Below, one piece after another: positions 24,143-57,867 of a stretch of 64,000 nt of DNA. A model generated the notes under the pieces. It ran no database searches. It had not been told where the DNA came from and worked only from the letters and a program-made list of their open reading frames with translations. The position numbers and the translations under genes are program-made. The DNA comes from a virus (Duplodnaviria; Heunggongvirae; Uroviricota; Caudoviricetes): IMG/VR virus record IMGVR_UViG_2713896899_000007, positions 1 through 64,000 of that record, one strand, 5' to 3'. Position 1 is the stretch's first letter. Each line of letters opens with the position of its first letter.

Positions 24143-25399
24143 CTATCTAGAACCACCAAGAATAACACGGTTTTTGACTGGATACCTACGATGTACTGGA
24201 TAGCCCAATGCGTCTGCACTATGCTCAATGCCACCTGTCTTATCCATATCTCGTGTTCCAGGCTTGTAGATGACTTTTTCCAGTGAATCAATCAAATGCT
24301 TGCACTTCGGATCGATATACAACCGGATATCTCCAGATGCGGTCATCAGCATTCGGTTAACAGCATTAACACGATCCGCAATTGGCGGGTGCTTTTTCGA
24401 ATAATCGACACGTAAGAATCCCTTCTCTTTGAAAATGTCGACGTCAGACTCCCCGCGAGCATGTTGGCGATAAGCACCTGCCGGATCTGGAAATACCGTT
24501 ATCTGTGATTTCCAGCGCCAGAAGCGTCTCTCAAGCTCATCACAAACCTCTGCCGTGTTAGAGGAAAAGAGCACCAATTCATCAATTGCCCATAGCTCAC
24601 CATTTGGCTGAGGTTGCAAAATTACTGAAGACATCGGGTCAATGTTGAAGTCCTGCCCTACCCATATAGGCAACCGAGGGTTGAACTGAAGCGGTTTTAC
24701 ATGCACGTTACGATCGAACGGGTAGTAAACGCGCCCGGACATGTTCTCAAAGCTCGCCAGGTACTCCTGAGCGAACGATTTCGGGTCCATATCGTTCTTA
24801 GCAGCTTCAATTTCCGCCGTAGGTACAAACGGAGAATCGGCAGTTACAAACTGCCAGCTCTTCCACTGTCCCTTTCTTTGCAGCTCTACGTTCTGGCCTA
24901 TAGTCCACAGTTTGTGAAATTCCGAGAAGCCTTTTGGCGTACCAATGATCAGTGCACCGCCGCGTGTCGATGAAAGAGTAGGTCGTAACACCTTGTACCA
25001 GGTGTCAGCCTTCATATCCTGAAATTCATCAAGCACTACAAAATGCAACGCTACGCCGCGCAGAGTGTCAGGCTTATCAGCACCTTTGAGGGCGATCTCC
25101 GAACCGTTCTTCAACACGATTGTCATCGTGGTGTCGTTCTTTTTCCTAACCCACTTACGAGGCAGAACTTCCTGTAGATCGTCCCACAAAATCTGGCGAG
25201 CCATCTGGTAAGTAGGAGCGACATACCAGACTCTTTGCTTTTTTTCCTTTGCCGCCGCACGAATAATAGTGGAGATCGACAACCGGGATTTTCCCCAGCG
25301 TCGACCAGCACAAACAACTTTAAATCGATGCGGAGACTGGAAGACTTTCATCTGTCCAGAATGCAGTTGCACAAGACTGAGCGAGGACGGGATTGCCAT
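24143..25399 (-). CDS. terminase large subunit
   Basis: N-terminal P-loop (CAGRRWGKS), acidic motif (VVLDEF), C-terminal nuclease-like region; gene order. Confidence 0.7.
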   Translation of the reverse strand: MAIPSSLSLVQLHSGQMKVFQSPHRFKVVCAGRRWGKSRLSISTIIRAAAKEKKQRVWYVAPTYQMARQILWDDLQEVLPRKWVRKKNDTTMTIVLKNGSEIALKGADKPDTLRGVALHFVVLDEFQDMKADTWYKVLRPTLSSTRGGALIIGTPKGFSEFHKLWTIGQNVELQRKGQWKSWQFVTADSPFVPTAEIEAAKNDMDPKSFAQEYLASFENMSGRVYYPFDRNVHVKPLQFNPRLPIWVGQDFNIDPMSSVILQPQPNGELWAIDELVLFSSNTAEVCDELERRFWRWKSQITVFPDPAGAYRQHARGESDVDIFKEKGFLRVDYSKKHPPIADRVNAVNRMLMTASGDIRLYIDPKCKHLIDSLEKVIYKPGTRDMDKTGGIEHSADALGYPVHRRYPVKNRVILGGSR

Positions 25400-26031
25400 T
25401 ATTCGTCCTCCCCTTCACTTCCATCATCTGTCGCATCAAATTCGCTTAGAGCTTCTTCTTCCAACGTCTCAAGCAATTCGTCATCGATGATTTCAGGCTC
25501 GTCGTCTTCCTGACGTAATTTCGCCACCTGGGAAGGCGTAAGCTCACCAAATACCAGGTTCGGAATTTCTTCCTCGTCATTTTCAGCATGATCCATGCCC
25601 AATGCTTTGGACGAAACTTCAAAGCATTTTGCAAGGGTATTACTGGCTCTCTGTAAGCTCTTGAGAGAATCCTCAATCGCCCCTAAAGGCTTACCATCAC
25701 GTTTGGCCGTAGTGACTTCGACCATCACCATCTGCCCCAACGCATACGCCCAGCCGTCATAACGTGTACGACGTTCTTCTATCTTTTCCGCACGGGCTTT
25801 AGCGCGAAGCTCTGCGTCAGATTTAAGAGACTCACGAACCATCTTCCCAACAGAGTCCGCGCCTTTCTCTAATCCTCGCTTTTTGAAATGTCTGGAGAGT
25901 GTTTCACGACGAATGCCGTACTCTTCCTCCAGCTTTGAGAGTGTATATTCGCCTGACGTCCATTTGGCTTCAGCTTCGGCCCACTCCGCTGGTGTCAGGC
26001 GAGTTTTTACCTCGTCTTTTTCGACCGTCAT
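25399..26031 (-). CDS. putative terminase small subunit
   Basis: N-terminal HTH-like segment, acidic C-terminus, start/stop coupled to large terminase; GAGGGA RBS. Confidence 0.5.
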   Translation of the reverse strand: MTVEKDEVKTRLTPAEWAEAEAKWTSGEYTLSKLEEEYGIRRETLSRHFKKRGLEKGADSVGKMVRESLKSDAELRAKARAEKIEERRTRYDGWAYALGQMVMVEVTTAKRDGKPLGAIEDSLKSLQRASNTLAKCFEVSSKALGMDHAENDEEEIPNLVFGELTPSQVAKLRQEDDEPEIIDDELLETLEEEALSEFDATDDGSEGEDE

Positions 26032-26039
26032 AGATCCCT

Positions 26040-26225
26040 CTAAAACACACAGAGCGCGTCCATGCGCTCTAAAACAACTTGTTTACTGCGTATGCTAACC
26101 AACTTGTTTTCTGGGGTGTTTAATTAGGTCTGGGCATGTCTTACTAAGCCTGCTTCCGTATATATTTAATAAGTTACTTATTATTTATATATACGGAAGC
26201 AGGTCTTTAAATAAGCTCCCAGACC
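26040..26225. promoter_or_regulatory. structured region upstream of terminase: short hairpin, motif-B-like element and a long imperfect palindrome; candidate late promoter and/or cos/pac region
   Basis: AGAGCGC...GCGCTCT hairpin; CCTGCTTCCGTATATA...TATATACGGAAGCAGG palindrome at ~26150-26205. Confidence 0.35.
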
Positions 26226-26227
26226 GA

Positions 26228-26494
26228 TTACATCACCAGTAACTTCGCTTTGGCTCGACCTAAAGTGGTTAACCCAAGAGTCCGGCGGTGATAGCGATTG
26301 TCACTGCGTTGGCGCGTATGCCCTTTCTCCACCAGCCCCTTTTTTATCAGAGCGCGAATTGAGAACTGAATACTTTGCTTGGTTGTCTTGTACGGCAAAA
26401 CTTCAAGCAATTCGTCCAGATCAAGTAGATGACCTCGCTCATAACCGAGATTGAGCGTTTTGATGATGTCCTTTTGTTTATCGGTTAACGTCAT
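26228..26494 (-). CDS. small basic protein, possible winged-helix DNA-binding protein
   Basis: 88 aa; last gene of the ParB/ABC/GNAT operon. Confidence 0.35.
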   Translation of the reverse strand: MTLTDKQKDIIKTLNLGYERGHLLDLDELLEVLPYKTTKQSIQFSIRALIKKGLVEKGHTRQRSDNRYHRRTLGLTTLGRAKAKLLVM

Positions 26495-27394: not shown

Positions 27395-28056
27395 GAATGG
27401 ACCTCATCGTGACTACCATTGTGATATTCCACCTTCACGCGTTCTTTGTAGTGCTTGGTGATCTGCATATCCGGGCGCAGCGCGTTCTTCAGGTCTTCGT
27501 GAGTCGTCGCCACCATTACCGTCGCACCAACCTTTCGAGCGGCACGCTGGAGGTTAGACGCCACAACCTGAGCGGTTACACGGTCGAGAACAGCGCCGAA
27601 CTCGTCAGCAGCCCACACTTTAGCGTCTGACTCAATCAGTTTGGCAATCTTGAGACGATATTTCTGGCCGTCTGACATTTCAGAAGGCTTGCGAACAAAC
27701 AGATATGCATCGTTCAGACCAGCCATAGATAACAACCCAAGCGCATCACTGGTCGTTTTGCCCAACTGATCGATGACGTTAACCTCATTATCGAAGGTAA
27801 AATCATCGATGGAGGCTACAGACAGCCCTTCATCCTTCATCTGTCGTTGCAACTCGCGCAGCACAACGGATTTGCCGGAACCGGATTGGCCGGTGATGTA
27901 CACCACATCGCCCTGCTTCACTTCCAGCTCCAGATTGTCGTAAAGCGTCCACTCTTTTTCGTCCAGGCCAAGCCCGAACGACTCAGCGATTTCCAATGTG
28001 CGCGTGGTTTTATTTACGCGTGTCTGAAACGATACGTTGATGATGTATTTGCTCAT
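27391..28056 (-). CDS. soluble ABC-type ATPase
   Basis: Walker A GQSGSGKS, signature LSDGQKYRL-like, Walker B AADEFGAVLD, H-loop; no membrane domain. Confidence 0.7.
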   Translation of the reverse strand: MSKYIINVSFQTRVNKTTRTLEIAESFGLGLDEKEWTLYDNLELEVKQGDVVYITGQSGSGKSVVLRELQRQMKDEGLSVASIDDFTFDNEVNVIDQLGKTTSDALGLLSMAGLNDAYLFVRKPSEMSDGQKYRLKIAKLIESDAKVWAADEFGAVLDRVTAQVVASNLQRAARKVGATVMVATTHEDLKNALRPDMQITKHYKERVKVEYHNGSHDEVHS

Positions 28057-28721
28057 GCAGCCATCTCCCCGGAAGAGATCTTCTCCGCATATGCCACAAA
28101 TGCGTCTACCCCGCTTTCTCCCGTCATTTCTTCCATGTGGGCAAGCAAATCACCAACAACAATGGCAGAGCCAGCAGGGAGCGTTTTAAAGCCCAATACG
28201 TCGACAACACGTACTTCTTCCGCTGCAACTTCACGACTGATCTCGGTGTGTTCATCCTTCTGTCGTTTAGTTTCTTCGCCAAGATCGATAACTAGCGAGT
28301 CGGTGTCCATTTCTTCTGTCATACTGCCAACGAGAACATTCAACTCACGCTCTTCAAAGCCGAAAACCTCGATATCGTCCAGAACAAGCGACTCAAGCTC
28401 TTTCTGTAGCTTAATTGCATCGTAATCAATGCTGGCAAGTCGGTTATCTTCAAGGCGCTTCGCACGAACCTCGTCATCACTGAGATCATCGCGAACAATA
28501 ACCGGTACGCGCTCAAGTCCAGCAAAAATTGCAGCCTCACGGCGGCCGTGGCCAGTAATAATTACGTCGTTCTTATCGACCGTAATTGGCTGGTCAAATC
28601 CGCGCTTTTTAATGGCTGCGGCTAGATCTCGGATCTGCTGTTCATCATGCTTTTTGGCATTCATCTCATAGGGAATAAGATCTGCCGGGTCGCGATATAC
28701 GATTTCAAACTTTTTGGTCAT
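28053..28721 (-). CDS. ParB/Srx-fold (ParB-like nuclease domain) protein
   Basis: ITGHGRREAAIFAGLERVPVIV motif; start moved to MTKKFEIVY, which has an AAGGAG RBS. Confidence 0.7.
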   Translation of the reverse strand: MTKKFEIVYRDPADLIPYEMNAKKHDEQQIRDLAAAIKKRGFDQPITVDKNDVIITGHGRREAAIFAGLERVPVIVRDDLSDDEVRAKRLEDNRLASIDYDAIKLQKELESLVLDDIEVFGFEERELNVLVGSMTEEMDTDSLVIDLGEETKRQKDEHTEISREVAAEEVRVVDVLGFKTLPAGSAIVVGDLLAHMEEMTGESGVDAFVAYAEKISSGEMAA

Positions 28722-29401
28722 TACATACGCTCCTTGTAGTAGTCGACCAGCCACACCAGAGCCTCACCAGCGTTCTCCATTTCATTACCGGTGTTAATAG
28801 CCTGCTCTTTGATGATGTTTTTTATGGTTTCTGCAACACGATCTGACGCATCGAAAGTTACTTTGAAGCGCATGGTCTGATGTTCCGCACCCACACGTTC
28901 GGTTTTCTCCCGTTTGTCGGTATCGACAGGCTCATCACTACCACGAGACAACGCCTCCAGTGCTTCAAGGTCGATTGCCGCCTCTTTTGCTAAAACCATC
29001 GAGATTTCGTCGTCATACGGGGCGATTTCAGACAGTTGATAGTCAAGTTCTGACTGAATTTCTTCAATGAAGCGTTGCAATGCGATTTGGTCGTCTTCAC
29101 CGTATCGCTCGTTGTCCACCAGTGACATCTGTTTTGCCACGACATCGCTAATTTTGCCCACAGAAAGCACCGGAACCGTTGAAATTCCTTGCTCAATAGC
29201 AGCACGCCAGCGATGTTCGCCGCCGAGGATTTCAAAAAATCCATCTTCAAGTTCACGAGCCAAAATTGGCTTAAAAAAGCCCAATTTTTCGATAGAACCT
29301 TTCAGTTTTTCAAAATTCTGCGCACCAACCGAATTGGTGTTCCAGGTATTCGGGCGAAGGTTGGCAACATCAACCTGCAAAATCGTGATTTTTACATCCA
29401 T
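28721..29401 (-). CDS. ParB/Srx-fold (ParB-like nuclease domain) protein
   Basis: GGEHRWRAAIEQGISTVPVLSV motif; track start is GTG, moved to next ATG (MDVKITIL). Confidence 0.7.
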   Translation of the reverse strand: MDVKITILQVDVANLRPNTWNTNSVGAQNFEKLKGSIEKLGFFKPILARELEDGFFEILGGEHRWRAAIEQGISTVPVLSVGKISDVVAKQMSLVDNERYGEDDQIALQRFIEEIQSELDYQLSEIAPYDDEISMVLAKEAAIDLEALEALSRGSDEPVDTDKREKTERVGAEHQTMRFKVTFDASDRVAETIKNIIKEQAINTGNEMENAGEALVWLVDYYKERM

Positions 29402-29483
29402 TTTATTGCTACAATCCACTAAGTAACTGCTTACTTATTATAATAGCCAAATAACATACAAAAGGCACTAAGGAAAGAGGTTT

Positions 29484-31043
29484 ATGACTGTTCGGATTGT
29501 ATCTAACGCAGTTAATGCGCTTATTTCTGGCGCAGATGACAAGGTAAAGCAACTGGTGCAGCAAATGTTGAGCTACGAAGTCGAGACTGGCGACTGGAAG
29601 GGCACAAGCACGATGTTCAACTGGAGTAAAAACTCGTTCCCTGCTGGCTTTGCCAAGCCTGTAGCGGCGAACTTGAACAAGGCGGGCATCAAATGTGTTC
29701 ATATCCGCAAAGACAAAGCCCCGGCGCTTGGTAAACCAAATCCGGCGGTTAACCCATTCCCATACAATCCTGATTATGCGTATCAGGATCAGACTGTGGA
29801 AACACTGGTTCGAGAGGGAATGATGATTGCGCAGATCGCTACTGGTGGCGGGAAATCTAACGTTGCCTGCAAAGCAGCTGCACGTATCGGTCGAATGACA
29901 TTATTTTTAACAACCCGCTCTGTTCTGATGTTTCAAATGGCCGAAAACTTCCAGAGATCCATCGACTACCGCGCCGAAAATGGCGAACCGTGGTTAAAAG
30001 ACCAAAAGGTTGGAGTCATTGGCTCGGGTGAGTTCCAGGTATCACGACATATCAACGTCGCTACAGTTCAAACTCTTGCAAGTTTCCTCGAAGAACCACC
30101 ACGCGATGCAACACCAGATAAGAAAAGCTACCACCTCAAACGTCGGGAGTTGGTGAAACGCTTCCTTTCAAGTGTCTCTCTTCTTATTCTGGAAGAGGCG
30201 CATGAGTCTTCAGGCTCAAATTTCTATGACATCGCCAGATTATGTGTGAACGCAGACTATCGTCTGGCGCTTACAGCCACGCCGTTCATGAAGGATTCGA
30301 CGGAAGCCAACATGCGCCTGATGGCGGTGGCCGGGCGAATTGAAATTAAAGTCACAGAAAAGTACCTGATTGATCGAGGCATTCTGGCAAAGCCGTACTT
30401 CCTTTATCATAAAGTTGCCTACAAACCAGACGAGGCCAGAATCAAGGCAGAACTTGCCAACAAACACCTCAATTTTAGAGTAGGTATGAGTACTGCCTAC
30501 CAAAAGGCTTATCAGTTGGGGATCGTGTATAATTTGGGACGTAACGAGGCCATTGTTCGCGAAGCATTGCTCTATAAGCAACATTCTCTCAATTGTATGA
30601 CTCTGGTTCGCCTTAAACGCCACGGGCAAATCCTGATGGAAATGATGAAAGAGTCCGGCCTTAGAGTTGACTTCATCTATGGGGAATCTAACCAGGCGAC
30701 AAGGCAAGCAAAGCTGAACAGTTTAGCGTCTGGAGAAATAGATGTTTTAATAGGCTCGACTATTCTGGATGTCGGTGTTGATGTGCCAAGCGTTGGTGCG
30801 GTCATTCTTGCTGGTGGTGGGAAAGCAGAAGTTGAAATGAGGCAGCGTGTCGGTCGTGGCTTACGAGCCAAGAAGAATCAGGCAAACGTGTGTTTTATCA
30901 CTGATTTCATTGACACTAGCAACAAATACCTGTTGTCTCACTCTTATGAGCGAAAACACATCATCGACACCACACCTGGCTTTGCAGAAGGTGTATTGCC
31001 TATTGATGGCGCATTCGATTTTGGAGTTCTGAAACGAGATTAG
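29484..31043 (+). CDS. superfamily-2 DEAH-type helicase
   Basis: motif I ATGGGKS, motif II LEEAHE, motif III LTATP, motif VI QRVGRGLR. Confidence 0.75.
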   Translation: MTVRIVSNAVNALISGADDKVKQLVQQMLSYEVETGDWKGTSTMFNWSKNSFPAGFAKPVAANLNKAGIKCVHIRKDKAPALGKPNPAVNPFPYNPDYAYQDQTVETLVREGMMIAQIATGGGKSNVACKAAARIGRMTLFLTTRSVLMFQMAENFQRSIDYRAENGEPWLKDQKVGVIGSGEFQVSRHINVATVQTLASFLEEPPRDATPDKKSYHLKRRELVKRFLSSVSLLILEEAHESSGSNFYDIARLCVNADYRLALTATPFMKDSTEANMRLMAVAGRIEIKVTEKYLIDRGILAKPYFLYHKVAYKPDEARIKAELANKHLNFRVGMSTAYQKAYQLGIVYNLGRNEAIVREALLYKQHSLNCMTLVRLKRHGQILMEMMKESGLRVDFIYGESNQATRQAKLNSLASGEIDVLIGSTILDVGVDVPSVGAVILAGGGKAEVEMRQRVGRGLRAKKNQANVCFITDFIDTSNKYLLSHSYERKHIIDTTPGFAEGVLPIDGAFDFGVLKRD

Positions 31044-37813: not shown

Positions 37814-38155
37814 TCAGGCTATTGCCATCACTGATGCTCTCTGAATTTCTTGTTGGGCCACGCGGTTAACTTCCATCAAAGCCAGTTCGAGCTGATGTTC
37901 CGGCCACATTCTTTGAAATGCCACCCAGCCTTTTCCACGCTGGCGACGAACATTCATTACATAACGAGTAAAGGTGTTTTTATCGAAAGACACCGCTGTT
38001 TCACGGAACAGACGAATAGAGGTTCCATTGGCAACGATGTCCAGCAAAGTTAATTGAGCAACTAGCGCAGGCTTCTCTTTTCGCTTCTGGTCTTTGTCCA
38101 GACCAAGAACCAATGATTTTTTCATCACAACTCCGTAAACAACTTGTTTTCTCAA
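37814..38155 (-). CDS. hypothetical protein (start possibly internal at MKKSLV)
   Basis: ORF with motif B at its 5' end. Confidence 0.4.
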   Translation of the reverse strand: MRKQVVYGVVMKKSLVLGLDKDQKRKEKPALVAQLTLLDIVANGTSIRLFRETAVSFDKNTFTRYVMNVRRQRGKGWVAFQRMWPEHQLELALMEVNRVAQQEIQRASVMAIA

Positions 38156-41397: not shown

Positions 41398-41550
41398 AAT
41401 AGAACGCAGAAAACAAATTGTTTTAGGGGCTGAGTAAATCAGAAGGGATTGCGTCTATATGAAAATGCCCAGCAATACGCTGGGCATTGTGAAGAATGGT
41501 TGTTTAGTTACTTAACTTGGTGGCCTGGTTTAGCACCAGCATCCGGGCTT
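41398..41550. repeat. direct repeat copy 2, overlapping the true 3' end of metG
   Basis: homologous to 40540-40690. Confidence 0.6.
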
Positions 41551-43541
41551 AACAGGAAGATATCTTTCCCGCCGGGGCCAGCAGCCATCACCATGCCTTC
41601 GGAGATACCGAAGCGCATTTTACGCGGAGCCAGGTTAGCCACCATAATTGTGTGACGACCAATCAGTGCCTGTGGGTCTGGATAAGCAGAACGGATGCCT
41701 GAGAAGACATTACGCTTTTCACCACCGAGATCCAGTGTCAGGCGCAACAGTTTGTCAGAACCTTCAACAAACTCCGCGTTTTCAATCAGCGCCACACGCA
41801 GGTCAACTTTGGCGAAGTCGTCAAAGGTGATGGTTTCCTGAATCGGGTCGTCAGCCAGTGGGCCAGTAACTGGCGCGGCAGTAGCTTTCACTTCTTCTTT
41901 GGATGCTTCCACCAGTGCTTCCACCTGTTTCATATCGATACGGTTATACAGTGCCTTGAACGGATTCACTTTATGGCCCAGCAGCGGTTGCTGGATACCA
42001 TCCCAGGTCAGTTCTGTATTCAGGAATGCTTCTGCACGTTCAGTCAGTTTCGGCAGTACCGGTTTCAGATACGTCATCAGCACGCGGAACAGGTTAATGC
42101 CCATAGAGCAAATCGCCTGCAGATCTGCATCGCGACCTTCCTGCTTCGCCACCACCCACGGAGCCTGTTCATCGACATAGCGGTTAGCCAGGTCAGCCAA
42201 TGCCATGATTTCACGGATAGCTTTACCAAATTCGCGGCTTTCCCATGCTTCGCCAATCACTTCAGCGGCATCAGTAAAGGTTTTGTACAGTTGCGGGTCA
42301 GCCAGTTCGCTTGCCAGCACGCCGTCAAAACGCTTGTTGATAAAGCCTGCATTACGGGAGGCCAGGTTAACCACTTTGTTAACAATATCGGCATTCACTC
42401 GCTGAACGAAATCCTCCAGGTTGAGATCGATATCATCAATGCGCGAAGAGAGTTTCGCAGTGTAGTAGTAACGCAGGCTGTCAGCGTCAAAATGATTCAG
42501 CCAGGTGCTGGCTTTAATAAAGGTGCCGCGAGACTTGGACATCTTCGCACCGTTCACCGTCACATAGCCATGAACAAACAGGTTGGTCGGCTTGCGGAAG
42601 TTGCTGCCTTCCAGCATGGCAGGCCAGAACAGACTGTGGAAGTAAACGATATCTTTACCGATGAAGTGGTACAGCTCGGCGGTGGAGTCTTTCTTCCAGT
42701 ATTCATCGAAGCTGGTGGTATCGCCGCGCTTGTCGCACAGATTCTTGAAGGAACCCATGTAGCCAATCGGTGCGTCCAGCCAGACGTAGAAATATTTACC
42801 CGGCGCGTTCGGAATTTCAAAACCGAAGTAAGGTGCGTCGCGGGAGATATCCCACTGTTGCAGACCAGATTCAAACCACTCCTGCATTTTGTTTGCCACC
42901 TGCTCCTGCAACGCACCGCTGCGGGTCCATGCCTGCAACATTTCGCTGAAAGAGGGCAGATCAAAGAAGAAGTGTTCAGAATCACGCATTACCGGGGTAG
43001 CACCAGAAACCACCGATTTCGGCTCGATCAGTTCAGTCGGGCTGTAGGTCGCGCCACAAACTTCACAGTTATCGCCGTATTGATCTGGCGCTTTACATTT
43101 CGGGCAGGTGCCTTTCACAAAACGATCCGGCAGGAACATGCCTTTTTCCGGGTCGTACAACTGAGAGATAGTGCGGTTTTTAATAAAACCGTTCTCTTTC
43201 AGGCGAGTATAAATAAGCTCAGACAGCTGGCGGTTCTCTTCGCTGTGCGTCGAGTGATAGTTGTCATAGCTGATGTTAAAGCCTGCGAAATCAGTCTGGT
43301 GTTCCTGACTCATTTCGCCAATCATCTGCTCCGGTGTGATACCAAGTTGCTGTGCTTTCAGCATGATCGGCGTACCGTGGGCATCGTCGGCACAGATGAA
43401 ATTAACCTCGTGGCCGCGCATTCGCTGGTAACGAACCCAGACATCAGCCTGGATGTGCTCCAGCATATGGCCGAGGTGGATTGAGCCGTTAGCGTACGGC
43501 AGCGCGCACGTCACCAGAATTTTCTTCGCGACTTGGGTCAT
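41508..43541 (-). CDS. metG: methionyl-tRNA synthetase (host gene)
   Basis: 677-aa product with HIGH-type motif ([11 protein letters not shown]) and KMSKS; near-identical to enterobacterial MetG from MTQVAKK; the longer track ORF is an upstream in-frame extension. Confidence 0.95.
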
Positions 43542-43698
43542 AGTAGGCATTACTTCTTTGTAGTGAAAAGGGGCTTGATAGTAACAAAATGGCCTTATGT
43601 CTGCCATGTGATAACAGCATTTCTCATAAATGATTAAATGTCGTAGCTGGAGTACACTACAAGGCGACAATTGCGCAAATTAAAATAAAGGAGACGGG

Positions 43699-44799
43699 AT
43701 GAGCGAGTCCAAATCGCCGGATGCCCTGAGAGCAATGGTAGCCGGTACGCTGGCTAATTTTCAGCACCCAACCCTGAAACACAACCTGACTACGCTTAAA
43801 GCGTTACACCATGTTGCGTTGATGGATGACACACTGCATGTCGAACTAATCATGCCTTTCGTGTGGAATAAGCCTTTTGAAGACCTGAAAGAGCAATGTA
43901 GTGGTGATCTGCTCCGTATCACTGGCGCAAAGGCTATTGACTGGAAGCTGTCGTACAACATTGCCACGCTTAAGCGCGTCAAAAACCAACCAGGCATTAA
44001 TGGTGTTAAGAATATTATCGCCGTAAGCTCAGGCAAGGGCGGTGTAGGCAAATCGTCCACAGCAGTAAACTTGGCACTGGCGTTGGCTGCTGAAGGTGCG
44101 AAAGTTGGTATTTTGGATGCCGATATCTACGGGCCATCAATACCAACCATGCTGGGCGCGGAAAACCAACGTCCAACCTCACCGGACGGTACTCACATGG
44201 CACCTATCATGTCTCATGGCCTGGCAACCAATTCAATTGGCTATCTGGTCACCGACGACAATGCAATGGTGTGGCGTGGACCGATGGCCAGCAAGGCGCT
44301 GATGCAGATGTTGCAGGAAACACTGTGGCCTGATCTGGACTATCTCGTTCTCGATATGCCGCCGGGCACTGGTGATATTCAGTTGACGCTGGCGCAGAAC
44401 ATTCCTGTAACTGGTGCGGTTGTGGTAACTACGCCGCAAGACATCGCGCTGATCGATGCGAAGAAAGGCATTGTGATGTTCGAAAAAGTCGAAGTGCCAG
44501 TACTGGGTATCGTTGAAAACATGAGTGTGCATATTTGCAGTAACTGCGGTCATCACGAGCCAATTTTTGGCACCGGTGGCGCACAGAAACTGGCCGAGAA
44601 ATACAACACGCAGTTGTTAGGCCAAATGCCACTTCATATCTCTCTTCGTGAAGATCTGGATAACGGAACACCAACCGTTATTAGTCGTCCAGATAGTGAA
44701 TTTACGGCTATTTATCGTGACCTCGCAGATCGCGTTGCTGCCCAAATGTATTGGCAAGGTGAAGTAATACCTGGCGAAATCGCATTCCGCGCAGTGTGA
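43699..44799 (+). CDS. apbC: Fe-S cluster carrier ATPase ApbC/Mrp (host gene)
   Basis: deviant Walker A SGKGGVGKS and CxxC motif; divergent from metG as in E. coli. Confidence 0.95.
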   Translation: MSESKSPDALRAMVAGTLANFQHPTLKHNLTTLKALHHVALMDDTLHVELIMPFVWNKPFEDLKEQCSGDLLRITGAKAIDWKLSYNIATLKRVKNQPGINGVKNIIAVSSGKGGVGKSSTAVNLALALAAEGAKVGILDADIYGPSIPTMLGAENQRPTSPDGTHMAPIMSHGLATNSIGYLVTDDNAMVWRGPMASKALMQMLQETLWPDLDYLVLDMPPGTGDIQLTLAQNIPVTGAVVVTTPQDIALIDAKKGIVMFEKVEVPVLGIVENMSVHICSNCGHHEPIFGTGGAQKLAEKYNTQLLGQMPLHISLREDLDNGTPTVISRPDSEFTAIYRDLADRVAAQMYWQGEVIPGEIAFRAV

Positions 44800-44836
44800 T
44801 AAAAAGGTGGTGCATTGCACCACCTAAACAGTTCTC

Positions 44837-56339: not shown

Positions 56340-56857
56340 AATAATTATTAAAATAAACAAATTACTTCCCAGTACAGGTTTTTATAAACCTGAACTGAAC
56401 GAACGAAGTGAGTGAAGTTCACCTCGAACGAAGTGAGAGGTTGTCTTTTCAGGTAATACTCTCCCAGGGAGGTGAGTATAAAATTCCTCACCAACCTGGT
56501 CGTTTCATAACCTGAAAAGCTATGGTCTAAGTCTACTGCCAGCTTAGACTTGGGAAGTTATGGATGACAGCACCCCAGAACCGAGATCTTCCCACACTTT
56601 ATGAAGGGGAGTACTGGATTCAACCTCTCGAAACACCCCAGACTCGACAATCATAAAGTGACCCTTGTCTCTGCTCACTTTGGTTCCCCCTTCCCCGACA
56701 CCTAAACGGCACCGGTTCTACGCTGGTAGTGAGCTTTTTTAAACCTGACGCCAGTGACGCTTACCCCCACCCATCAGGTCGAGTCTCCAGTCTATGACTG
56801 GAAACTATCAGATCTTAGCACTTACAATTCATCTTATGAATAGTTTGTACTTATCTA
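56340..56857. other. ~520-bp ORF-free structured region (direct repeats and hairpins); candidate ncRNA or cis-acting site
   Basis: no ORF of 60 aa or more; GAACGAAGTGAG direct repeat; several 6-7-bp stem-loops. Confidence 0.3.
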
Positions 56858-57088
56858 TCATTTCGATTGATTATTTTCTCGACCATGTAGTTGAACATTC
56901 AAGGCAAACACCTCGTTGATCAACTCACCTAAAAGCTGTTCAACAAGTTCGCGATGCTCCCCAAGATGCAAGCACTTAATTGCCCATTCGTACAAGTTGA
57001 AAGCCTGCTCGCGATCTTTCATCATTTCACGAGCCTTAGCCAGAAAATCGCTCTCTACGAGCGCAACAACATTGGTCGGGTATGACAT
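56858..57088 (-). CDS. hypothetical small protein
   Basis: 76-aa ORF. Confidence 0.4.
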   Translation of the reverse strand: MSYPTNVVALVESDFLAKAREMMKDREQAFNLYEWAIKCLHLGEHRELVEQLLGELINEVFALNVQLHGRENNQSK

Positions 57089-57273
57089 GTTAGTTTTCCT
57101 TAAAGTGGTTCATAAAATCGATTTTAAAGCGTCTGAGAAGGGGTTCTAGTGGATTCTGTAGTGGTGTTCAGGTCTGGGAGTCTCTGATACAAAACAGCCT
57201 GCTTCCGTATATTAATAATTAATATGTAGTTATTTATATACAGAAGCAGGTTAATTACACTCGCCAGAACAAA

Positions 57274-57867
57274 CTAAGCAGCCTTCTTTGATGGTCTTTT
57301 TTTCCTGACCACATTCGCAGGATCATACCCTCCCAGACTTTTCATTACGTCCAAAGGGATCTTGCTTATAGAGTGCCCAGCGTCCTGACAGAATCCTCGA
57401 AAAACAACGAGCATACTGCCACCGGGGTTGATGTTTACTTCTACCTGACCCAAATTGACGTCAGGCTCGACAAACGCTACGCGGCCACCAGACAGAATAA
57501 TCGTCTCATTCGCATACTCTGTTGCACGCTCATACCACTTTGTATCGAGGGATTGAGGAATTAGCATCACTGTTGTAACTCCGCGAGCCTGCTCACGTAT
57601 AGCAGCATCAATCCAGGGGGAGATTTTGGAGTAGGGTGGATTGAGGAAGGCAATTGTACCTGGCTGTCCCCATTCAGATTTCAAAGCATCGCGCTCAACG
57701 CCTATGAAATTAGGCAGCTTTGCATTGTCCTTGTTGCAGGCAACGTCAACATCAAATGTCACTCCAAGATAACGTTGAATGGCAGAAAACAGCCAATCAG
57801 GTGTTCTCCAGAGGTCACGAAGAGAGTTGTCGCGCTTTCGCTGTTTGATTTTTTCGGCTGCAATCAT
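57274..57867 (-). CDS. phage Dam-family DNA N6-adenine methyltransferase
   Basis: WRTPDWLF...FDVDVA...AFLNPPYS motifs. Confidence 0.8.
   Translation of the reverse strand: MIAAEKIKQRKRDNSLRDLWRTPDWLFSAIQRYLGVTFDVDVACNKDNAKLPNFIGVERDALKSEWGQPGTIAFLNPPYSKISPWIDAAIREQARGVTTVMLIPQSLDTKWYERATEYANETIILSGGRVAFVEPDVNLGQVEVNINPGGSMLVVFRGFCQDAGHSISKIPLDVMKSLGGYDPANVVRKKRPSKKAA

Follow-up and report, generated by a model that had tools for sequence, protein, structure and literature searches.

A long palindrome just upstream of the small terminase gene of an SSU5/pHCM2-like phage-plasmid is one of three conserved palindromes placed between gene blocks, and it is therefore most likely a transcription stop or control signal rather than a packaging site. 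The window, which is the whole stretch of 64,000 nucleotides that was analysed, holds two of these elements, here called copy 1 (c1) and copy 2 (c2), and the third (c3) is located at 30637-30693 in the near-identical plasmid p009_B, about 6.3 kb to the left of the window start. The first-pass annotation of this DNA, which had noticed the first two copies, called the palindrome a reused element. That description holds and can be extended, as the three copies form an orthologous intergenic family that is kept across Enterobacteriaceae and Morganellaceae phage-plasmids. The reading tentatively favoured here is that the elements are operon-boundary terminator or insulator hairpins in which a phage factor would find its recognition box.

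Genomic setting and anatomy of the palindromes

The window belongs to an SSU5/pHCM2-like phage-plasmid and carries nearly all of its genes on the minus strand; genomes of this kind are in essence a single long minus-strand gene array on a circle of 108-110 kb. Identity reaches 99% with Escherichia phage CMS-2020a, 98% with PhiR41_1 and 87% with Salmonella phage SSU5, and the E. coli plasmid p009_B (NZ_CP048306) is 100% identical to the window over the region tested. The c1 region is present in 800 PLSDB plasmids from Klebsiella, Escherichia, Enterobacter, Yersinia pestis, Salmonella and other hosts. Host-like metG (methionyl-tRNA synthetase) and apbC genes are found inside the phage-plasmid (window ~41500-44800, equal to p009_B 78458-81749), and the annotation of phage Cyrano includes tRNA genes for Asn, Thr and Ser. 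SSU5-like relatives also encode a T4-like recombination and replication set, found in Cyrano (OV696614) at 52241-67874 and comprising UvsY, a gp32-like SSB, a RecA/UvsX-like protein, SbcCD-like proteins, RuvC, Pnkp, and DnaE with epsilon. The operon upstream of c1 (window ~28053-29500, minus strand, and in relatives) encodes two ParB_N/Srx-domain proteins and an ABC-type ATPase, together with a 296-aa protein (phrog_886) and the 88-aa phrog_900 protein; in the lysogen, the operon directly upstream of c1 is expressed at background level.

The coordinates of the features are collected in Table 1. The palindrome sequence quoted in the first-pass annotation is exact, and its placement of c1 beside a TerS-like gene and of c2 downstream of Dam is correct. 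A long palindrome is indeed present, but its inner part measures 55 nt and not the ~70 originally given, or 99 nt when the outer arms are included. The inner palindrome of c1 consists of 17-bp perfect arms, a 7-bp apical stem and a 3-nt loop, and the GC-rich 10-bp base of the stem is CCTGCTTCCG/CGGAAGCAGG. The outer 5' arm begins 2 nt past the stop codon (26228-26230) of the 88-aa gene; on the plus strand, the outer arms read GGTCTGGG at 26127-26134 and CCCAGACC at 26218-26225. A box resembling the outer 3' box of c1, CTCCCAGAC, also trails copies 2 and 3.

The second copy, for which the same arms had been claimed, is likewise real. Its 24-nt arms are 88% complementary, and its outer 5' partner (~57262-57270) is degenerate in the window genome and intact in other clades. 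Pairwise alignment of c1 with c2, a check proposed in the first-pass annotation, gives 70-74% identity over ~120 nt in either orientation. With two mismatches at most allowed, the window contains the 15-mer arm four times against 0.11 expected, none of 100 shuffles reaching four, and a local search of the window found no copy beyond these two. As DNA, the copies fold with z-scores of -10.0/-8.7 (c1) and -4.6/-4.8 (c2), and the sense (minus-strand) RNAs fold at -52.8 kcal/mol for c1 (z -10.3), -38.8 for c2 (z -5.3) and -34.4 for c3 (z -5.7).

All copies share one layout relative to the genes around them. In the window, the flanking minus-strand gene pairs are the 88-aa gene and the TerS-like gene for c1, and Dam and the 76-aa gene for c2. 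The stop codon of the upstream gene is followed after 2-25 nt by the element and after 6-24 nt by its inner stem, and each copy ends ~110-118 nt short of the next start codon, the distance between c1 and TerS being 118 nt. Along the gene strand, the order is an outer box GGTCTGGGAG, an unpaired spacer of 13-26 nt, an inner arm CCTGCTTCYGTATA, an AT-rich self-complementary centre, the second inner arm TATACGGAAGCAGG, a spacer of 14-22 nt, and the outer box CTCCCAGAC.

Table 1. Features of the two palindromes in the window and of their surroundings
Feature	Position	Strand	Sequence and remarks
c1 inner palindrome	26149..26203	minus	55 nt, near-perfect; plus strand CCTGCTTCCGTATATAT...ATATACGGAAGCAGG
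c1 as read on the transcribed minus strand	26149..26203	minus	CCTGCTTCCGTATATATAAATAATAAGTAACTTATTAAATATATACGGAAGCAGG; 10-bp GC-rich base, AT-rich upper stem
c1 outer 5' arm	26218..26225	minus	GGTCTGGG; 8 bp; as GGTCTGGGAG in relatives
c1 outer 3' box	26127..26134	minus	CCCAGACC; pairs with 26218-26225
13-bp palindrome, two copies	26072-26084, 26097-26109	minus	AAACAAnTTGTTT; between c1 and TerS
Canonical terminator-like hairpin	26040..26071 (hairpin 26071..26050)	minus	GAGCGCATGGACGCGCTC, then UGUGUGUUUUAG; just before the TerS ribosome-binding site
c2 inner palindrome	57198..57250	minus	CCTGCTTCTGTATATAAATAACTACATATTAATTATTAATATACGGAAGCAGG, then CUGUUUUGUAUC; single U:G pair on the minus strand
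c2 outer 3' box	57171..57180	minus	CTCCCAGACC; plus-strand reading GGTCTGGGAG
Gene-sense 3' half of the element			TTAAATATATACGGAAGCAGGC plus CTCCCAGACC
TerS-like DNA-binding protein	25399..26031	minus	phrog_867; small terminase in the phage Cyrano annotation; first gene downstream of c1
88-aa protein	26228..26494	minus	phrog_900; labelled 'DNA binding domain containing' in Cyrano; the gene directly preceding c1
Dam-family N6-adenine methyltransferase	57274..57867	minus	PF05869; upstream neighbour of c2
76-aa protein	56858..57088	minus	phrog_5343; downstream neighbour of c2

The gap between c1 and TerS contains two further kinds of signal. The first-pass annotation had described the centre of c1 as motif A-like, which proves to be a loose resemblance only, as the true motifs, two copies of the 13-bp palindrome AAACAAnTTGTTT, are separate sites between c1 and TerS. 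This palindrome is probably what was meant by 'motif A'. It occurs at 11 sites in the window against 0.29 expected, the others being at 38137, 38621, 39812, 40490, 40541, 41411, 45349, 54046 and 54775; whole plasmids of the E. coli and pKpn types contain 20 sites each, and Moellerella almost none. The motif has an oriented extension on the gene strand (..AGAAAACAAnTTGTTT) and is mostly found 15-30 nt upstream of an AAGGA Shine-Dalgarno sequence. This class looks like a phage-specific promoter or operator, and the pair before TerS is a candidate promoter or operator of the packaging operon. The terminator-like hairpin at 26071..26050 is kept in relatives, some of which carry a compensatory change from GCGC to GCAC/GTGC, and its presence suggests that the packaging operon may be controlled by attenuation or antitermination.

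Spread of the family and concerted change of its arms

A pattern scan of IMG/VR returned at least 118 elements, and all matches listed map to c1, c2 or c3 (40, 28 and 50, respectively). Downstream of c1 lies the packaging and structural block, downstream of c3 the helicase-primase block, and downstream of c2 the block after Dam; c3 itself is preceded by a ParA-like operon (phrog_164) and followed by a 246-aa gene and then by genes for a DnaB-like helicase and a primase. Mobility was considered on account of partial matches in seemingly unrelated plasmids (H66-H69), but these proved to be SSU5-like remnants with the element at the same positions. The elements are not REP/MITE-like because their positions are strictly orthologous: instead of many copies at non-orthologous sites, the listed IMG/VR matches all fall in the three orthologous gaps. 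A protelomerase target of the telRL type, known from N15-like linear plasmid prophages as one long palindrome at which hairpin ends form, was also rejected: the relatives have circular plasmids, the records examined list no protelomerase, and the palindrome is present three times. Across the whole window, Rfam 15 yielded no family match at gathering score and only sub-threshold, miRNA-precursor-like matches to the AT-rich hairpin, and searches of the literature on SSU5 termini, PhageTerm, cos and palindromes found no description of the element.

Conservation was assessed in samples unbiased by the arm pattern, as they were anchored on TerS, Dam and the c3-adjacent protein. In Enterobacteriaceae, 9 of the 14 arm positions are invariant, while the flanks have diverged freely and are unalignable. 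Arm positions 5, 6, 8 and 9 vary, with plain mismatches alongside wobble pairs and compensated pairs. The formal covariation of the arms is weak: two-sided changes were seen in 3 of the 14 arm pairs, a number equalled in 20 of 500 shuffles, and the overall score was no better than that of the shuffles. The arms are therefore conserved more as sequence than as structure. A test of the RNA strand, based on G:U against C:A counts and on sense and antisense fold energies, holds for c3 only and not for c1 or c2. On the gene strand, U:G pairs outnumber C:A pairs about 3 to 1 overall, an excess driven by c3, with c2 showing the opposite and c1 being neutral. Among 37 distinct c3 sequences, 34 have a sense fold that U:G pairs make more stable than its antisense counterpart, whereas at c2 the antisense fold is more stable on average and at c1 stability has no strand bias.

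The arms are clade-specific, and they have switched together at all three sites, being CGGAAGCAGG in Enterobacteriaceae, TGGGAGCTAGG in Moellerella and AGGAGCCAGG in pKpn-type Klebsiella plasmids. Moellerella pNX2019-MW3 (NZ_CP129024) has palindromes in the same three gaps, with arms CCTAGCTCCCATA/TATGGGAGCTAGG, centres of 52, 85 and ~100 nt, and outer boxes that differ as well (CCGCAGTGT/ACACTGCGG). This plasmid contains nine perfect 13-mer arms against ~0.003 expected. Three or four of its perfect arms are single and partnerless and lie outside the three gaps, at 69488 (inside the nrdA coding sequence), 11082, 45952 and 92708, and two of the single arms directly follow canonical terminators. 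When IMG/VR was scanned with patterns of the Moellerella-type arms, most of the matches were terminators of no relation to the element. In the pKpn-type Klebsiella plasmid NZ_CP117483, an identical gene-sense motif, TATTAAATATATATAGGAGCCAGGC, is present once in each of the three gaps; at c2 and c3 the 5' arm is absent, and a canonical terminator made of a hairpin and a T-run follows 6-50 nt further on.

As pKpn retains the gene-sense 3' half only, the universal core of the element is this 3' half, and conservation of c1 within the SSU5 lineage is likewise higher in the 3' half than in the 5' half. The palindrome is, judging from these comparisons, a lineage-specific elaboration of the 3'-half core. 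The hairpin is not indispensable because Moellerella has partnerless arms and pKpn lacks a hairpin at two sites. Arms that change jointly at all sites would fit a factor that recognises them and evolves along with them, and gene conversion by the element's T4-like recombination system (UvsY, gp32-like, RecA/UvsX-like and SbcCD-like proteins) could also yield it.

Transcription across the gene boundaries

Evidence on transcription comes from published gene-level RNA-seq of Cyrano, a plasmid of strain LF82 (PMC9928086, S1 table). The three parA-operon genes upstream of c3 are expressed at 50-89 and the next gene downstream at 6.2; from 55 before c3 to 6 after it, this is a drop of ~9-fold or more, and under other conditions the difference grows to as much as 6-8 log2 units (PMC9928086, S1 table). 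The changes at the other two copies are small, with a 2-3-fold decrease across c1 under some of the conditions and an increase across c2 (PMC9928086, S1 table). The 193-nt c3 gap of Cyrano contains the c3 palindrome, followed by UCUUUUAAAG, as its sole strong hairpin, and no other terminator-like site was found in it. The drop at c3 could equally be explained by a protein roadblock or by silencing.

Each copy has a stable GC-rich hairpin on the transcribed strand, as is expected of an intrinsic terminator, with sense-RNA z-scores from -10.3 to -5.3. The sense-strand tails that follow the stem are UCUUUUCUCU at c3, CUGUUUUGUA at c2 and CUUAGUAAGA at c1, and the mean number of T in the 10 nt after the stem is 5.5, 5.1 and 3.0, respectively (4.2 for c1 antisense). 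A simple terminator scan calls none of the three copies. The proposal that the palindrome could be a terminator is supported in part, by the adjacency to stop codons, the U-rich tracts after c2 and c3 and the RNA drop across c3; c1 itself has no U-tract, and the canonical terminator-like hairpin there is the separate one at 26071..26050. The U-tracts and the separate canonical terminators (at c1 here, and at c2 and c3 in pKpn) are complementary, which fits a need for termination at each boundary.

Promoter and operator signals were also sought in these gaps. None of the three gaps yielded a sigma-70 promoter on the gene strand. A T4-late-type promoter, TATAAATA, is present in both window copies, yet it is not a general promoter class because only five occur in 64 kb. 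A LexA box was rejected as well: CTGTATAT half-sites occur in some variants, but their spacing is wrong and c1 of the window has CCGT. Two genes downstream of c2, the tiny gene CYRAN_81 (Cyrano 78657-78791; window ~56500-56700) is expressed in the lysogen at 117 against a background of ~10; it is among the top lysogen-expressed genes, and a strong lysogenic promoter therefore lies within the unit after c2.

Candidate functions and relation to known systems

Under the favoured reading, each copy would form, on the transcribed strand, a long hairpin that is GC-rich at its base and AT-rich towards its tip, and this hairpin would end or strongly attenuate transcripts arriving from upstream. Such an arrangement would insulate the lytic gene blocks from genes active in the plasmid state, and the hairpin probably also stabilises the 3' end of the upstream mRNA. 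The gene-sense 3' half (TTAAATA..TATA, CGGAAGCAGGC), with the CTCCCAGAC box often 15-22 nt beyond it, may serve as a sequence-specific recognition site for an element-encoded factor. This factor would decide between read-through or re-initiation, so that each copy would work as a regulated terminator or a promoter-proximal site, and c1 would be a gate before the late/packaging operon and not the packaging site itself. The anatomy, the threefold orthology, the conserved and jointly changing arms and the RNA drop across c3 are observations; on this model we infer termination at c1 and c2, and a trans-acting factor that may recognise its site as RNA or as DNA.

Among the competing explanations, the one raised by the first-pass annotation is that c1 is a cos/pac packaging-initiation site or part of one. 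Apart from the position of c1 118 nt upstream of TerS, the one point in its favour is circumstantial: the linear SSU5 record (JQ965645) is opened within c1, at 8 nt from the centre and with a seamless junction between its two ends, and the Cyrano record (OV696614) shares this start. The opening of the SSU5 record inside c1 is either a real terminus or an assembly break, and breakage of an assembly at a long palindrome explains it as easily; the Cyrano paper reports no end mapping, none was found for SSU5 in the literature searched, and other virion-derived phage records start elsewhere. Symmetric nicking at the SSU5 break would leave a self-complementary overhang consisting of A and T only. 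The other two copies, which bear the same arms, are remote from the terminase genes, and conservation extends to all three. The large terminase (TerL) matches Terminase_6N, Terminase_3 and Terminase_6C, and the solved structures closest to it are those of P74-26 TerL and T4 gp17 rather than lambda gpA; a lambda-like cos would combine a single terminase-side site with a lambda gpA-type large terminase, and neither is found here. With three copies and a T4-like large terminase, a packaging role is very unlikely, and it was dropped as the main reading on copy number, TerL type and the self-complementary overhang implied. It is extremely unlikely that the elements are selfish or neutral palindromic repeats of the MITE/REP kind with no function for the phage, as a repeated palindrome with terminal inverted repeats and the extra copies in Moellerella might suggest: the three positions are strictly orthologous across Enterobacterales families, every copy found (in the collections and in three complete plasmids) lies inside SSU5-like sequence with no sign of mobility and with no target duplications noted in passing, and the arms are far better conserved than the flanks. 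RNase III-type processing sites, or intercistronic hairpins that stabilise mRNA and play no role in termination, would account for stems of more than 20 bp, for the internal loop between the outer and inner helices and for a family of similar intergenic sites in one genome. This view is distinctly improbable, as the large RNA fall across c3 is unexpected from processing alone, single-arm versions exist, and processing gives no cause for the concerted change of arm sequence.

Two further readings place the function in DNA. The main rival, which is possible if rather unlikely, is that the arms are double-stranded sites for an element-encoded protein, used as inverted pairs or singly, either as a dispersed centromere or global-regulator site (ParB/KorB-type) or as a set of operators or roadblocks (P1 C1 repressor-like), with the AT-rich centre as a bendable or loopable spacer. 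The joint switching of all sites in three clades, the perfect single arms of Moellerella and single motifs of pKpn, the two-tier symmetric layout in which the outer boxes are clade-specific too, and the conservation of the arms as sequence with weak covariation all speak for such sites. So does the company they keep, as c3 always lies downstream of the ParA-like operon and c1 downstream of an operon with two ParB-like (ParB_N-domain) proteins and an ATPase, and the fall in expression across c3 agrees with a roadblock or with silencing. A distance between the arms that ranges from 21 to ~100 nt is nevertheless awkward for a dimer on duplex DNA, the E. coli-type plasmid has no half-sites close to a regulator or a par promoter, and the 13-bp palindrome AAACAAnTTGTTT, with its far greater number of sites, makes the better candidate for an operator; moreover, the pKpn motifs keep the gene-sense orientation in all three gaps, and the elements abut stop codons in the manner of terminators. 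Alternatively, the elements might be lytic replication origins, several per genome, in which inverted repeats around an easily melted AT-rich core bind an initiator. The succession of GC-rich repeat, AT-rich core of variable length and GC-rich repeat with an outer repeat tier, the three or more copies around a 108-110-kb circle, the proximity of c3 to helicase-primase genes, the element's own T4-like replication and recombination set, and the concerted arm change expected from co-evolution with an initiator are compatible with this idea. It is improbable in view of the missing candidate initiator, the retention of a single arm only in pKpn, and the adjacency to stop codons and the U-tracts, which it leaves unexplained. 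In a broader form, to which we likewise give only a small chance, the three elements (up to seven in Moellerella) would be sites for a co-evolving factor that act on DNA as multiple lytic origins or as loading sites for T4-like machinery. The initiator would then attach to the GC-rich inverted boxes, and melting of the AT-rich core, or its extrusion as a cruciform, would follow from the design; if true, SSU5-like phage-plasmids would be multi-origin phages whose origins double as operon insulators.

By analogy with described systems, the element appears to behave most like an intrinsic terminator joined to a recognition site that is specific to the phage and resembles nut/qut sites or promoters, though it does not fully conform to any of these families. 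With Rho-independent (intrinsic, sometimes bidirectional) terminators it shares a GC-rich stem base right after the stop codon, a U-rich tail at c2 and c3, and a drop in RNA level across c3. Unlike them, it has a stem of at least 25 bp that is mostly A/T, lacks a U-tract at c1, and carries arms that are identical at three unrelated gaps and change in concert, with relatives that keep half of it and no hairpin. The lambdoid nut (boxA/boxB) and qut sites are alike within one phage and differ between related phages because of co-evolution with the phage factor. As far as can be told from sequence, the likeness lies in a hairpin or site with a nearby linear box upstream of a terminator, which would gate entry into the late/terminase operon, but the phage-plasmid has no N or Q homologue and no boxA consensus, its hairpin is far longer than boxB, and its three sites lie at operon boundaries and not downstream of two early promoters. 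The RNase III sites between the genes of T7 are similar in that they, too, form a family of long hairpins with an internal loop, in a phage genome transcribed in one direction; their sequences are unrelated, and concerted arm change and single-arm versions are not known as features of RNase III sites. The sopC-like centromere repeats of N15, the KorB operators of RK2 and the mono- and bivalent C1 operators of P1 are 13-17-bp units of fixed geometry. Like the arms, they occur as a few to a dozen copies of one sequence, singly or in inverted pairs, in intergenic positions before replication and late genes and in genomes with ParA- or ParB-like genes, whereas the arms lie 21 to ~100 nt apart and protein binding to them is putative. 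Herpes simplex virus oriL and oriS, palindromic viral origins with an AT-rich centre, also have two inverted-repeat tiers around an AT-rich core and several copies per genome, but the present elements abut stop codons, and one lineage keeps one arm only.

SSU5/pHCM2/pKpn-type phage-plasmids are common in clinical E. coli, Klebsiella and Salmonella and in Yersinia pestis (pMT1), and to our knowledge their gene regulation is essentially unstudied. The case of c1 is also a caution that a palindrome beside a terminase gene is not by itself a cos/pac site, and that the start point of a deposited record is not to be trusted. The three co-evolving boundary elements mark the starts of the lytic blocks for packaging and structure, for helicase-primase and after Dam, and one of them also marks the end of a plasmid-maintenance operon. 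They may thereby help to find the factor that opens the lytic programme, to build insulated expression cassettes and to set correct genome start points.
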